Assembly (NCBI GenBank): GCA_949288955.1
Contig: CASEMS010000015.1
Span: 4,269 to 68,268 of the forward strand
Origin: an uncultured Lentisphaeraceae bacterium
Lineage (GTDB): Bacteria; Verrucomicrobiota; Kiritimatiellia; RFP12; DVOR01
Length of the DNA stretch: 64,000 nucleotides
Reading direction: 5' to 3'
Below are positions 12,066 to 21,854 of the stretch, one piece after another. The notes below the pieces were generated by a model that saw nothing but the letters and a program-made list of their open reading frames with translations, was not told where the DNA came from and searched no databases. Position numbers and translations under genes: made by a program. Every line of letters begins with the position of its first letter. The first letter of the stretch is position 1.

Positions 12066-14131
12066 ATGGACAACACGGAAATCGAATACGGCACGGACGT
12101 CTTCAACGAGGGCGTCATGCGCGAGTATTTGGCAAAGGACACGGCGGAGGCGTTGCTGCACACGATGCGCGACCACGCGCCGCTCGACCCCGCCATCGCC
12201 AACGAAGTGGCCCACGCCCTCAAGCAGTGGGCGATGGATCGCGGCGCGACGCACTTCACCCACTGGTTCCAGCCGCTCACCGGCAGCACCGCCGAGAAGC
12301 ACGACGCCTTCTTCGAGCCGACGGGCGTGGGGCGGACGCTCGCGCGCTTCTCCGGCAAGAACCTGATCATGGGCGAGCCGGACGCGTCGAGCTTCCCCTC
12401 CGGCGGTCTGCGGCGCACCTTCGAGGCCCGCGGCTACACGGCCTGGGACGTTACGAGCCCGGCCTTCATCAAGCGCCACGCCAACGGCGCCACCCTCTGC
12501 ATCCCCACCGTCTTCTGCTCCTACACCGGCGAGGTGCTCGACAAGAAGACGCCCCTCCTGCGCTCCATGCAGGCGATGGAGAAGGCGGTGCGGCGGCTGA
12601 TGGCCTGCTTCGGCGAGCGGCCGGACGGGCACGTGGTCTGCACGCTCGGCCCGGAGCAGGAGTATTTCCTCATCGACAAGGCCTTCTGGCTCAAGCGGCC
12701 CGACCTCATCCAGTGCGGCCGCACCCTCTTCGGCGCGCCGCCCGCCCGCCACCAGCAGTTGGAGGACCACTACTTCGGCTCCATCAAGCCGCGCGTCCTC
12801 GCCTTCATGGAGGACGTGGAGCGCGAGCTCTGGCGCCTGGGCATCCCGCCAAGACCCGCCACAACGAGGTGGCCCCCGCGCAGTTCGAGCTCGCGCCGAT
12901 GTTCGAGGAGCTCAACCTCGCCGTCGACCACAACATGCTCGTCATGGAGACGCTGCGCAACGTGGCCGACCGCCACGGCTTCGTCTGCCTCCTGCACGAA
13001 AAACCCTTCGCGGGCGTCAACGGCAGCGGCAAGCACAACAACTGGTCCGTGGCCTACGACGACAAGAACCTCCTCGACCCCGGCAAGAACCCGCAGGACA
13101 ACGCCATCTTCCTGGCCGTGCTGGCCAGCATCATCCGCGCCGTCGACCTGCACGCCGACATCCTCCGCGCGGCCACCGCCGGCGCGGGCAACGACCACCG
13201 TCTGGGCGCGAACGAGGCCCCGCCCTCCATCCTCTCCATCTTCCTGGGGGACGAGCTCACCAGCGTCATCGACCGGATCGAGCGCGGCTCCCGCGCCGAG
13301 GACGCCAAGACCCCCTCCCTGCGCGTGGGCGTGGACACCCTGCCGCCCCTGCCGCGTGACACGACCGACCGCAACCGCACCAGCCCCTTCGCCTTCACCG
13401 GCAACAAGTTCGAGTTCCGCGCCCCCGGCTCCAGCCAGAACTGCGCGGGCGTCTGCATGGTGCTCAACACCATCGTGGCCGAGAGCATGGAGGCCCTGGC
13501 CGACGCCATCGGCAAGCTGCCCAAGGAGCACTTCAACGAGGGGCTTGAGAAGATCCTCCGCGCCGTCTTCAAGGATCACAAGCGCGTCATCTTCAACGGC
13601 GACGGCTACTCCGAGGAGTGGGTGGCCGAGGCCGCCCGCCGCGGCCTGCCCAACCTCCGCACCACCCCCGAGGCCCTCGCCCCGATGCTGGCCCGGAAGA
13701 ACCTGGACCTCTTCGCCAAGGAGGGTGTCCTCCTGCCCACCGAGATGGAGAGCCGGCATGGCGTCTTCATGGAGGAGTACGAACGCAAGGTTACCATCGA
13801 GGGGAAGGCCGCGCTGGAGATGGCCCGCAGCCTCATCGAGCCCGCCGCCACCGCCGAGTTCGGCGCCGTCTGCAAGGCCGTCGAGACCGCCCGCGCCATC
13901 GGCGTGGAGGCGGGCGTGGCCAGCGTGCGCGAGGTGGCCGAGACCCTCGGCCGCGGGTTGGACGCCCTCCACGCGCAATGCGCCGCGCTCGAACGTGCCT
14001 TGGGCGGCGACCCCGCCGGCATCCTCGCCGCGCTGGCCGACCTCCGCAAGACCGTCGACAAGCTGGAGGAGGACGTGGACGACGCCCGGTGGCCGATCCC
14101 GAAGTACCGCGACATGCTCTTCGTCTACTGA
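12066..14131 (+). CDS. glnN: Glutamine synthetase type III (GlnN), interrupted by a single-base frameshift near 12848
   Basis: N-terminal GSIII signature [19 protein letters not shown] lies in frame 0. The C-terminal ~430 aa ([17 protein letters not shown]...KYRDMLFVY) lie in another frame. The junction ggcatcccgccaagacc lacks one G relative to the expected GIP-AKT reading. Confidence 0.85.
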
Positions 14132-14140
14132 GGCACGGCG

Positions 14141-18595: not shown

Positions 18596-21500
18596 GCGCA
18601 CCGACCTCCGCAAGATCCTCCTCATCGGCTCCGGCCCCATCGTCATTGGCCAGGGCTGCGAGTTCGACTACTCCGGCACCCAGGCCTGCAAGGCCCTCCG
18701 CGCCGACGGATACGAGGTGATCCTCGCGAACTCCAACCCAGCCACCATCATGACCGACCCGGCCGTCGCCGACCGCACCTACGTCGAGCCCCTCACCCCG
18801 GAGAGCCTTGAGGCCATCATCGCCCGCGAGCGTCCCGACGCCCTCCTTCCCACGCTCGGCGGGCAGACGGCCCTCAACCTGGCGATGGCGCTCTTCCGCC
18901 GCGGCACCCTCGGCCGCTACGGCGTGGAGATGATCGGCGCCAACGCCGCCAGCATCGACCGTGCCGAGGACCGCCAGAAGTTCAAGGAGGCCATGCTCGC
19001 CATCGGCCTCGACCTCCCCCGCTCCGGCACCGCCCACACCCTCGACGAGGCCCGCGCCGTCGCCGCGCGCATCGGCACCTGGCCCCTCATCGTCCGCCCC
19101 GCCTTCACCCTCGGCGGCACGGGCGGCGGCATCGCCGACGGCCCCGAGGACTTCGACCGCGTCGCCCAAGCCGGCCTCGACGCCTCCCCCACCTCCGAGA
19201 TCCTCATCGAGGAATCCCTCCTCGGCTGGAAGGAATTCGAGATGGAGGTCGTCTGCGATCGCGTGGGCAACGCCATCGTCGTCTGCTCCATCGAGAACCT
19301 CGACCCTATGGGCGTCCACACCGGGGACTCCGTCACCGTCGCCCCGATCCAGACCCTCACCGACGCCGAGTACCAAGCCATGCGCGACGACTCCTTCGCC
19401 GTCATGCGCGCCATCGGCATCGCCACCGGCGGGGCCAACGTCCAATGGGCCGTCGACCCCAAGACCGGCCGCCGCGTCATCATCGAGATGAACCCCCGCG
19501 TCTCCCGCTCCTCCGCCCTCGCCTCCAAGGCCACCGGCTTCCCCATCGCCAAGGTCGCCGCCCGCCTCGCCGTCGGCCACACCCTCGACGAGCTGCGCAA
19601 CGACATCACCGGCACCACCCCCGCCTCCTTCGAGCCCGCCCTCGACTACGTCGTCGTCAAGGCCCCCCGCTTCGCCTTCGAGAAGTTCCACGGCGCCGAC
19701 GACACCCTCGGCACCCAGATGAAGTCCGTCGGCGAAGCCATGGCCATCGGCGCCACCTTCCAGGAGGCCCTCCAAAAGGCCCTCCGTTCCCTCGAAACCG
19801 GCCGCGCCGGCCTCGGCGCCGACGGCCGCGACGCCTTCGCCGCACTCCCAGACGCCGCGCTCGAAGCCGCCCTCGCCCGCCCCACCGCCGAGCGTCTCTT
19901 CCAAATCCGCGAGGCCTTCCGCCGCGGCTGGACCCTCGACCGCCTCCACGCCCTCACCGCCATCGACCCTTACTTCCTCCGCCACATCCAGGAACTCGCG
20001 TTCTACGAGGACGAGATCGCCGCCGTTGGCACCCCCAAGGCCCTCGCCGCCGACCCCGAACGCTTCCGCCAAGCCAAGGCCCTCGGCTTCTCCGACCGCC
20101 AGATCGCCCACCTCCTCGGCGCCGACGAGGCCGCCGTCTCCGCCGCCCGCCGCGCCGTCGGCGTCCTCCCCGGCTACGGCCTCGTGGACACCTGCGCCGG
20201 CGAGTTCGCCGCCCGCACGCCCTACTATTATTCCAGCTACGCCCTCGCCCCCGACGCCCCCACGGCCGCCCCGACCGACGCCCGCCCCGCCATCCTCATC
20301 ATCGGCGGAGGCCCCAACCGCATCGGCCAAGGCATCGAGTTCGACGCCTGCTGCTGCCAGTCCGCCGCCGCCCTCCGCGCCCTTGGCTACCGCGTCGTCA
20401 TGGCCAACTCCAACCCCGAGACCGTCTCCACCGACTACGACACCTCCGACGCCCTCTACTTCGAACCCCTCACCCTCGAGGACCTCACCGCTCTCTACGC
20501 CCGCGAACGCTGCGTCGGCGCCATCGTCCAATTCGGCGGCCAGACCCCCCTCAACCTCGCCCAAGCCCTCAAGGACGCCGGGGTCGCCATCCTCGGCACC
20601 AGCCCCGACGACATCGACCTGGCCGAGGACCGCGACCGCTTCAAGCGCCTCGCCGACGCCATCGGCATCCTCCAACCGCCCAGCGGCATCGCCCACACCG
20701 CCGAGGAAGCCCTCGCCATCGCCGACCGCATCGGCTATCCCGTCCTCGTCCGCCCCTCCTTCGTCCTCGGCGGCCGCGGCATGGTCATCGTCCACCGCCG
20801 CGACGACCTCGATGCCCTCGCCCGCCAAGCCGTCGCCATCGCCGAAGGCAAACCCATCCTCATCGACCGTTTCCTCGAGAACGCCATCGAACTCGACGTC
20901 GACTCCGTCACCGACGCCGCCGGGCACACCGTCATCGGCGCCATCCTCGAGCACGTCGAACCCGCCGGCGTCCACTCCGGCGACGCGGCCTGCGTCACCC
21001 CGCCCCTCTCCCTCGCACCCGAGACCCTCGCGCAGATCCACGCCTACGCGGAAGCCTTCGCCCGCGCCCTCCACGTCCGCGGGCTCATGAACCTCCAGCT
21101 CGCCGTCCACGGGCGCGACATCTACATGATCGAGGTCAACCCCCGCGCCTCCCGCACCGTCCCCTTCGTCTCCAAAGCCATTGGCCTCTCCCTCGCCGGG
21201 GTCGCCGCCCGCGTGATGGTGGGCAAAAGCCTCGCCGAGGCCGGCCTCCCCGCCGAGCGCACCCCCACCCGCTTCGCCGTCAAGGAATCCGTCTTCCCCT
21301 TCGCCCGCTTCCCCGGCGCCGACGTCGCCCTCTCCCCCGAGATGAAATCCACCGGCGAGGTCATGGGCCACGCCGCCACCGTCGGCCTGGCCTACCTCAA
21401 AAGCCAGCTCGCCGCCGGCGCGCGCCTCCCCCTCCCCACCCCCGACGACCCCCACCCCACCCTCCTCCTCGCCTTGGCCGACGCCGACAAACCCGCCGGC

Positions 21501-21854
21501 GTCGCCGCCGCCAAACGCCTCGCCGCCCTCGGCTACCGCTTCTTCGCCACCCGCGGCACCGCCACCGCCCTCTGGCAGGCCGGCCTCCGCCCCAACGCCT
21601 GCTTCCGCCTCGGCGAAGGCAGCCCCAACGCCCTCGACCTCCTCCGCGAAGGCACCCTCCAATGGGTCGTCAACACCGCCGGCACAGGCGCCGACCCCAA
21701 CGCCGACGCCCTCCGCATCCGCGCCGCCGCCACGCTACGCGGCCTCCCCGTAACGACCGTCCTGCAAGGCTTCGTGGCCGCCGTCGAAGGCATCGAGGAA
21801 AGCCTCCGCCTCGCCCCCACCCCGCCCATCACCCTTCAGGAGTGGCACGTCTGA
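18588..21854 (+). CDS. carB: Carbamoyl-phosphate synthase large subunit
   Basis: [33 protein letters not shown]... with a duplicated ATP-grasp architecture, 1088 aa. The start overlaps the pyrG stop. Confidence 0.95.

Follow-up and report, generated by a model that had tools for sequence, protein, structure and literature searches.

The window analysed here (the whole 64-kb stretch of DNA, a metagenome-derived contig of a Lentisphaerota bacterium) contains a cluster of five co-oriented genes, glnN, a purF-like gene, carA, pyrG, and carB, which lies divergently to the glutamate synthase gene gltB and is preceded by a consensus sigma-54 promoter sequence. As claimed in an earlier reading of this DNA (the original prediction), all five products make or use the amide group of glutamine; this has to be qualified for the PurF-like protein, a divergent relative of PurF. 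The genes of the cluster are the following:

12066-14131, plus strand: glnN, type III glutamine synthetase (GSIII), with the GSIII domains split over two frames
14141-15862, plus strand: gene for a PurF-like class-II (N-terminal nucleophile, Ntn) glutamine amidotransferase with a phosphoribosyltransferase (PRTase) domain, 573 amino acids (aa), an intact open reading frame (ORF) assigned by family scan
15846-16979, plus strand: carA, small (glutaminase) subunit of carbamoyl-phosphate synthase (CPSase), 377 aa, TIGR01368 at 430 bits with a cut-off of 307
16976-18595, plus strand: pyrG, CTP synthase, 539 aa, GTG start, PRK05380 at 769 bits
18588-21854, plus strand: carB, large subunit of carbamoyl-phosphate synthase, 1088 aa, PRK05294 at 1498 bits

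Because the G+C content of the window is ~70%, long spurious ORFs crowd all six frames; the coding frames were picked by third-position G+C and then checked with family scans (Pfam, NCBIfam). Four of the five genes (purF-like, carA, pyrG, and carB) are intact plus-strand ORFs, and the scans agree with the identities originally given to them, PyrG (715 bits, cut-off 463) and CarB (1355 bits, cut-off 1027) exceeding their NCBIfam equivalog cut-offs as CarA does. For glnN, the assignment as a glutamine synthetase gene is right, but 12066-14131 is not one ORF, the gene being frameshifted in this assembly, which the original prediction overlooked.

The stop codon of glnN (TGA, 14129-14131) is separated by a 9-nucleotide (nt) gap from the ATG of the purF-like gene at 14141, with a GAGG sequence overlapping the stop. 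The carA ATG sits 17 nt inside the purF-like gene (15862/15846) and is the first start codon of its ORF, with no later in-frame ATG, GTG, or TTG in the stretch read. At the carA/pyrG junction, the GTG start of pyrG overlaps the carA stop in the sequence GTGA at 16976-16979, and at the pyrG/carB junction, ATGCCTAA at 18588-18595, the carB ATG lies 8 nt inside pyrG. A GGAG-like Shine-Dalgarno site precedes each start codon in the cluster. The overlaps and near-contacts proposed beforehand match the DNA exactly at all four junctions, and the gene calls bear out the insertion of pyrG between carA and carB.

The cluster is flanked upstream by a spacer and by two genes that appear to belong to the same nitrogen-related context:

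5440-6966, plus strand: gene for a sigma-54 enhancer-binding protein, NifA-like, 508 aa, with Pfam GAF, AAA+, and HTH_8 domains
6938-11317, minus strand: gltB, large subunit of glutamate synthase (GOGAT), 1459 aa, PRK11750 at 1579 bits, divergent from glnN
11351-11366, minus strand: putative sigma-54 -24/-12 promoter for gltB, TGGCACGGAAGTTGCA, an exact consensus match
11449-11788, unstranded: inserted repeat element of ~340 nt, arrays of 22-nt period around a structured core of ~225 nt, present in two copies
11831-11844, unstranded: candidate enhancer (upstream activating sequence), palindrome TTACA-N4-TGTAA, TTACACGATTGTAA, the only match in 64 kb
12015-12030, plus strand: putative sigma-54 -24/-12 promoter for glnN, TGGCACGGCGGTTGCA, a perfect consensus match 35 nt before the glnN ATG

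Sigma-54 boxes were defined by GG at -24 and GC at -12, 10 nt apart (TGGCACG-N4-TTGCW); the two listed above are the only perfect ones in 64 kb and point away from each other. The palindrome, observed once against 0.04 matches expected by chance in 64 kb, lies 170 bp upstream of the glnN promoter and is followed ~27 nt downstream by a half-site-like sequence, TTACAAAAATGG. The gltB ATG is at 11317, and the GOGAT large subunit encoded by this gene itself uses glutamine. In the predicted activator, a GAFTGA motif occupies residues 266-271; the best family match, over the full length, is NifA TIGR01817, at 459 bits below the cut-off of 528.85, and no nif genes are found near the activator gene in the window, so that the protein is regarded as NifA-like in architecture only. 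The activator gene and gltB are convergent, their 3' ends overlapping by 29 nt. A search for riboswitches and leader RNAs, both ahead of the operon and within it, gave no Rfam match that reaches its gathering score.

Conservation of this arrangement was surveyed with the PurF-like protein as the probe, and the L-numbered loci mentioned below are contigs of relatives, 13-22 kb each in the motif scans. L001 and L087 belong to the same species as the window, L001 being 98.2% identical in DNA, and L087, which comes from a sister sample, sharing 99.97% identity along 7.7 kb; L085 is Victivallis vadensis, L006 a member of the Victivallales, L009 a metagenome-assembled genome of the Kiritimatiellia, and L017 a member of the Kiritimatiellae, and L012-L084 include Bacteroidota loci. 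The full order glnN–purF-like–carA–pyrG–carB occurs in L001, L087, L002-L004 (85% protein identity to the window), L005 (82%), L086 (63%), L085 (60%), and L007 (55%), and L006 is consistent with it up to the contig end; at least seven further organisms, belonging to two phyla, share the order. The overlaps of 17, 4, and 8 nt are retained in L002 and L005, in both of which the carA/pyrG overlap reads ATGA, and short gaps are found in more distant genomes. A gap of 8-11 nt, free of T-runs and hairpins, separates glnN from the purF-like gene in the window, L002, and L005. The divergent neighbour is gltB or gltBD in the window, L001 (with the same 1459-aa gltB), L002, L007, and L085; gltD is not adjacent to gltB in the window species, L001 included, and stands beside it in L002, L007, and V. 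vadensis.

Variants of the cluster are also seen. L009 has the order glnN–purF-like–carA–pyrG–glmS–carB, with glmS (glutamine–fructose-6-phosphate aminotransferase; 14606-16453, 754 bits) set between gaps of 14 and 3 nt, so that the extra gene recruited is again one for a glutamine amidotransferase. In L017, purF-like–carA–pyrG is divergent from amtB, with a P-II-like ORF (recognized by eye) in the spacer, whereas L010 and L011 keep only glnN–purF-like, and L008 and L066 the purF-like gene alone. Given this mixed presence, the arrangement is, as far as these contigs reach, neither strain-specific nor universal, and the possibility raised at the outset that it might be unique to one strain is dispelled by the synteny. 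The variable composition of the operon and the missing cluster in L008 and L066 might suggest that the adjacency is a historical accident without selective meaning. This is highly improbable, however, considering that the order persists in two phyla at protein identities as low as ~55-60%, that the one inserted gene found is again that of a glutamine amidotransferase, and that the divergent partner gltB is also glutamine-using; judged from these genomes, the clustering is far beyond chance. In the literature searched, neither a carA-pyrG-carB or glnN-purF-carA arrangement nor sigma-54 control in Lentisphaerota is described, and the arrangement is visible in public genomes such as that of V. 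vadensis.

The elements of the spacer are conserved along with the genes. The plus-strand box before glnN is found in L001, L002, L005, L006, L009, L011, L085, and L086, the minus-strand box on the gltB side in L001, L002, L006, L085, and L086, and the palindrome upstream of glnN in L001, L002, L006 (two copies), L007, L009, L085 (two copies), and L086, being in each of these loci the only occurrence or the only pair. The recurring order is the minus-strand box, one or two palindromes of the form TTACA-N4/5-TGTAA, the plus-strand box, and glnN (L001, L002, L006, L085, L086); L009, from the Kiritimatiellia, has the palindrome and the plus-strand box without the minus-strand box. Each locus has hardly any other matches to these boxes and palindromes. 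This pattern constitutes a strong phylogenetic footprint for a shared candidate enhancer, to which we infer that the activator binds, and the same activator gene is present in L001 and L002. The sigma-54 promoter placed before glnN by the original prediction is thereby well supported, as a perfect box conserved in relatives together with the palindrome and the NifA-like activator gene. In L002, a second sigma-54 box, TGGCACGGCGATTGCA at 19876-19891, identical to the glnN one, lies ~40 nt upstream of a ClpB-like gene.

At the translation starts, the 14 nt ending in the carA and carB start codons are identical (GGAGCACCGCCATG at 15835-15848 and 18577-18590), both copies of GGAGCACCGCCATG encoding an …EHRH… tail of the upstream protein. 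The GGAGCACCGCCATG initiation region matches at 13 of 14 positions in L002 and is not conserved at carB in L005. The identity may serve to balance initiation between the two CPSase subunits, or it may be a coincidence; as a sign of duplication it carries little weight, being partly forced by the conserved C-terminus of the PurF-like protein.

The downstream boundary of the cluster is marked by the following feature:

21878-21907, plus strand: intrinsic-terminator-like hairpin followed by T5, -21 kcal/mol, 24 nt after the carB stop codon

On the plus strand between 12000 and 22200, there are three runs of at least four T, only one of which, at 21903, follows a stable hairpin (21878-21902). Within this interval, no hairpin with a T-run occurs inside the operon, confirming that no terminator-like site intervenes between the genes, and a consensus scan detected no sigma-70-like plus-strand site inside the operon. 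As the hairpin and T-run after carB are followed by a convergent restriction-modification island, the unit is taken to end at carB. The location of all five genes on one strand, the short or overlapping junctions, and the lack of an internal terminator are those of an operon, and one transcript from the sigma-54 promoter would be the simplest reading for the window organism.

With moderate confidence, we propose that the locus is a nitrogen-assimilation divergon, in which the five genes would form a single-transcript, nitrogen-controlled operon behind the sigma-54 promoter. In the predicted mechanism, the NifA-like GAF-domain activator encoded beside gltB would bind TTACA-N4-TGTAA and drive two divergent sigma-54 promoters, one for gltB (GOGAT) and the other for glnN–purF-like–carA–pyrG–carB. 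The supply of glutamine by GSIII would then be co-transcribed with the main early sinks of amide nitrogen, these sinks being GOGAT, the first step of purine synthesis, carbamoyl phosphate for pyrimidines and arginine, and CTP. The overlapping stop and start codons with their GGAG-type Shine-Dalgarno sites may couple translation, and this coupling would keep CarA and CarB balanced despite the presence of pyrG between their genes. By analogy to the GAF domains of NifA, the signal perceived by the activator is plausibly 2-oxoglutarate or nitrogen status.

Several observations weigh against this divergon model. The PurF-like protein, to which the first purine step is ascribed, scores 146 bits with purF TIGR01134, below the equivalog cut-off of 350; the ~340-nt element sets the gltB promoter ~465 nt from the palindrome; and the cluster is partial or absent in L008, L010, L011, L017, and L066. 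The consensus scan for sigma-70 sites leaves room for internal promoters, and since most bacteria use pyrG, carAB, and purF as housekeeping genes, it would be unusual for them to depend solely on an activator-dependent promoter; internal promoters for pyrG, carAB, and the purF-like gene must hence be seriously reckoned with, even at the narrowest gaps. In V. vadensis, glnN and the purF-like gene are separated by 146 nt containing a hairpin followed by T5 at 9869-9918 (the 45 nt preceding the T run fold at -31 kcal/mol, and an 86-nt segment of the gap has z = -4.4), so that glnN may there be a separate or attenuated unit and the cluster may consist of two units. In L017, which lacks glnN, the purF-like gene is immediately preceded by a sigma-54-like box together with ACA-N4-TGT motifs. 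From the V. vadensis hairpin and the box possessed by L017, it follows that expression units would differ between lineages.

These features could also be expected of a conserved neighbourhood that is not one operon, with the sigma-54 promoter serving mainly glnN and the downstream four genes being expressed from internal constitutive promoters or by regulated read-through. Such an organization would accommodate the hairpin and T5 after glnN in V. vadensis, the glnN-less L017 cluster with its own sigma-54-like box, the retention of only glnN–purF-like in L010 and L011, and the basal expression that housekeeping genes usually need. It is less easily reconciled, however, with the glnN/purF-like gap of 8-11 nt in the window, L002, and L005, where a hairpin of the V. 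vadensis type is absent from the lineage of the window, with the lack of a plus-strand sigma-70-like site inside the operon, and with the overlaps at the other junctions. Owing to the V. vadensis hairpin, the housekeeping roles, and the possible internal promoters, our confidence is divided between the two, and the conserved neighbourhood is considered possible but the weaker candidate. Extending the divergon model, we also entertain, as a tentative and on balance doubtful idea, that one GAF-type sigma-54 activator and a bidirectional enhancer constitute a "glutamine hub" regulon in the Lentisphaerota and part of the Kiritimatiellota, which would tie the purine, pyrimidine/arginine, CTP, and, in some genomes, amino-sugar steps, together with GSIII and GOGAT, to nitrogen status, replacing end-product control of purF, carAB, and pyrG. 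Physical association of GSIII with the amidotransferases may possibly be part of such a hub.

The span of glnN, 2066 nt, is not divisible by 3; the frame of 12066 encodes the GSIII N-terminal domain, and the one ending at 14131 encodes the catalytic and C-terminal domains, so that GSIII_N, Gln-synt_C, and Gln-synt_C-ter are all found, but across two frames and not in one polypeptide. The break is hidden because the high G+C content keeps both frames open, for ~700 codons. Alignment to the Bacteroides fragilis GSIII structure (PDB 3O6X) places the switch between "…LGIP" and the next residues, at 12843-12845, where the window reads ATCCCGCC (C3) and the relatives ATCCCCGCC (C4), the wider context being GGCATCCCGCCAAG in the window and GGCATCCCCGCCAAG in the relatives. 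When the base is restored, a protein of 688 aa is obtained that is 100% identical to L001 GlnN (tblastn alignment). The 1-nt loss is the only net indel in 19.4 kb relative to L001; L087 differs from the window by one single-nucleotide polymorphism and the extra C, and encodes an intact GlnN of 688 aa; and glnN is intact in L001, L002, L087, and all other relatives. From the single indel relative to L001 and the intact gene in L087, it is most likely that the frameshift arose as an error of assembly or as a very recent mutation, and is not a feature of the system. A generally noisy assembly is unsupported as the cause, since no other net indel occurs in the 19.4 kb.

The C3 of the window in place of C4 would also be compatible with glnN being a true pseudogene here, the cluster decaying or the glutamine synthetase having moved, or with a -1 ribosomal slip on C_CCG, in which a shift of tRNA-Pro from CCG to CCC would give back I-P-A-K exactly. 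Both are unlikely in view of the uniqueness of the indel in the comparison with the 98.2% identical contig and of the intact glnN in the 99.97% identical one and in all other relatives; for the slip, moreover, neither a slippery site nor a stimulatory structure downstream of it is conserved, because the relatives do not need one. Programmed -1 frameshifting is rejected, as C4 and an uninterrupted frame are found in every relative, L087 (99.97% identical) among them.

The PurF-like protein retains the hallmarks of PurF, namely the N-terminal nucleophile Cys, the glutaminase residues, the loop binding phosphoribosyl pyrophosphate (PRPP), and the two-domain fold. The nucleophile is Cys9, following a propeptide of 8 aa, and the PRPP loop of the window protein reads DDSIVRGNT; residues invariant in the family are C9, G-H-L-R-Y (R103, Y104), N134, D159, and D401-D402-S403-(I)-V405-R406-G407. 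In a profile search of the PDB with the family, only PurF enzymes match (best, E. coli PurF, 1e-38), and the top 17 fold matches of an AlphaFold (AF2) model (pLDDT 86, pTM 0.85) are all PurF chains, with target-normalised TM-scores of 0.72-0.82. The family also has a conserved extension of ~100 aa at the C-terminus (…ERAY), which classical PurF lacks. On the basis of these residues and the model, the protein is probably an amidophosphoribosyltransferase of a divergent type. The family is common to the Lentisphaerota, Kiritimatiellota, and Bacteroidota; the Bacteroidota members have ~632 aa and are 40-45% identical, and their gene is unlinked to glnN, carA, pyrG, and carB, the Flavobacterium neighbours (a PfkB kinase, a sigma factor, and a superoxide dismutase) being uninformative. 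A divergent PurF family left unassigned by current curated models is thereby recognized in these three phyla.

Conserved Cys residues are a further property of this family: among 40 sequences, C115, C282, and C440 are invariant, and C202, C273, and C535 are present in ≥90%. C282 falls within the motif CVFERxYFSR, and a conserved C-terminal motif is also present. The former resembles a segment that presumably carries an Fe–S ligand in Bacillus subtilis PurF, and an Fe–S cluster with different ligands is possible in the PurF-like protein.

The ~340-nt element in the spacer has a second copy, 84% identical, at 46009-46348 (minus strand). It is composed of 22-nt direct repeats, with a unit of about GGATCAGCCGCYGATCCAAGGA, and a GC-rich core of ~225 nt that is predicted to fold at -147 kcal/mol (z = -5.5); the two copies differ mainly in loops and linkers, with the stems kept, and no Rfam family matches the element. 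Since it is absent from the homologous spacer of L002, it is probably an insertion and not part of the regulation. Solo arrays of 22-nt period, with 2.6-5.5 copies, occur at 426-456, 5283-5343, 30068-30188, 41979-42039, 50762-50858, and 54861-54957; those matching the spacer arrays are of the same repeat family, and the unit at 30068-30188 is related by eye. All are intergenic with respect to the predicted genes, one lying just upstream of the sigma-54 activator gene, and none is accompanied by a sigma-54 box. The 22-nt arrays were considered as activator sites and discarded, because similar ones occur elsewhere, in at least six intergenic regions that have no sigma-54 box, and are absent from the L002 spacer; the conserved element is instead the palindrome TTACA-N4-TGTAA.

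Downstream of the cluster, the minus-strand region 22177-28332 is an island of lower G+C content (54-60%), convergent with carB, which encodes a type I restriction-modification system with the genes hsdR, a SieB-like superinfection-exclusion gene, hsdS, and hsdM. A DUF3800-VII RNA (RF02967, 53.8 bits) is found at 25052-25132 (plus strand), where it spans the boundary between hsdR and the SieB-like gene. The plus-strand ORFs at 22027-23142 and 23158-25236 past carB are spurious, having no family matches; the genuine gene of this region is hsdR, read from the minus strand.

If the divergon model holds, the locus would be a clean case from nature in which a shared co-substrate, and not a pathway, unites the genes, and would place enzymes for nucleotide precursors under nitrogen (sigma-54) control. 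It also offers a concrete candidate regulatory module (promoters, palindrome, and activator) for a phylum whose molecular genetics has hardly been developed, and in which V. vadensis is cultivable.

The closest known system for the promoter region is glnAp2/glnALG of enterobacteria, which similarly has a glutamine synthetase gene behind a GG-N10-GC promoter, an upstream-bound AAA+ activator, and a nitrogen-assimilation logic. However, the glutamine synthetase here is of type III (GlnN) instead of type I, the activator is a GAF-type, NifA-like protein without a receiver domain instead of an NtrC-type protein, the operon partners are amidotransferase genes instead of ntrBC, and the candidate enhancer is shared with the divergent gltB promoter. 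The E. coli carAB operon and the pyrAA/pyrAB and carAB genes of the Bacillus pyr and arg operons encode the same subunits in translationally close-packed genes, whereas in the present cluster pyrG (pyrG and glmS in L009) separates carA from carB, no genes of the pyrimidine or arginine pathways are nearby, and the predicted promoter is of the sigma-54 type in place of the tandem carAB promoters controlled by arginine and pyrimidine. The B. fragilis GSIII has the same GSIII_N, catalytic, and C-terminal domains and can be aligned over the full length once the two frames are joined, although the gene here is frameshifted in the assembly and its operon context is different. In comparison with the PurF structures from E. 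coli (1ECF/6CZF) and B. subtilis (1AO0/1GPH), the PurF-like protein is alike in its two-domain fold, in the Cys nucleophile following a short propeptide, as in the B. subtilis enzyme, and in the kept R-Y, N, and D glutaminase residues and DDSIVRG PRPP loop, while the identity is merely 21-24% and only the PurF-like side has the C-terminal extension. The aromatic supraoperon of B. subtilis also unites genes of several pathways in one co-oriented, overlapping unit; there, the link is between connected pathways, whereas here it would be the co-substrate, the amide nitrogen of glutamine. All the parts, namely a glutamine synthetase gene under sigma-54 and activator control, the CPSase subunits, CTP synthase, a PurF relative, and GSIII, are of known kinds, and the gain is therefore one in comparative regulation and not a new mechanism. 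What differs from the described systems is the grouping by co-substrate, the placement of pyrG, with or without glmS, between carA and carB, and the combination of a GAF-type activator with a candidate enhancer shared with gltB.

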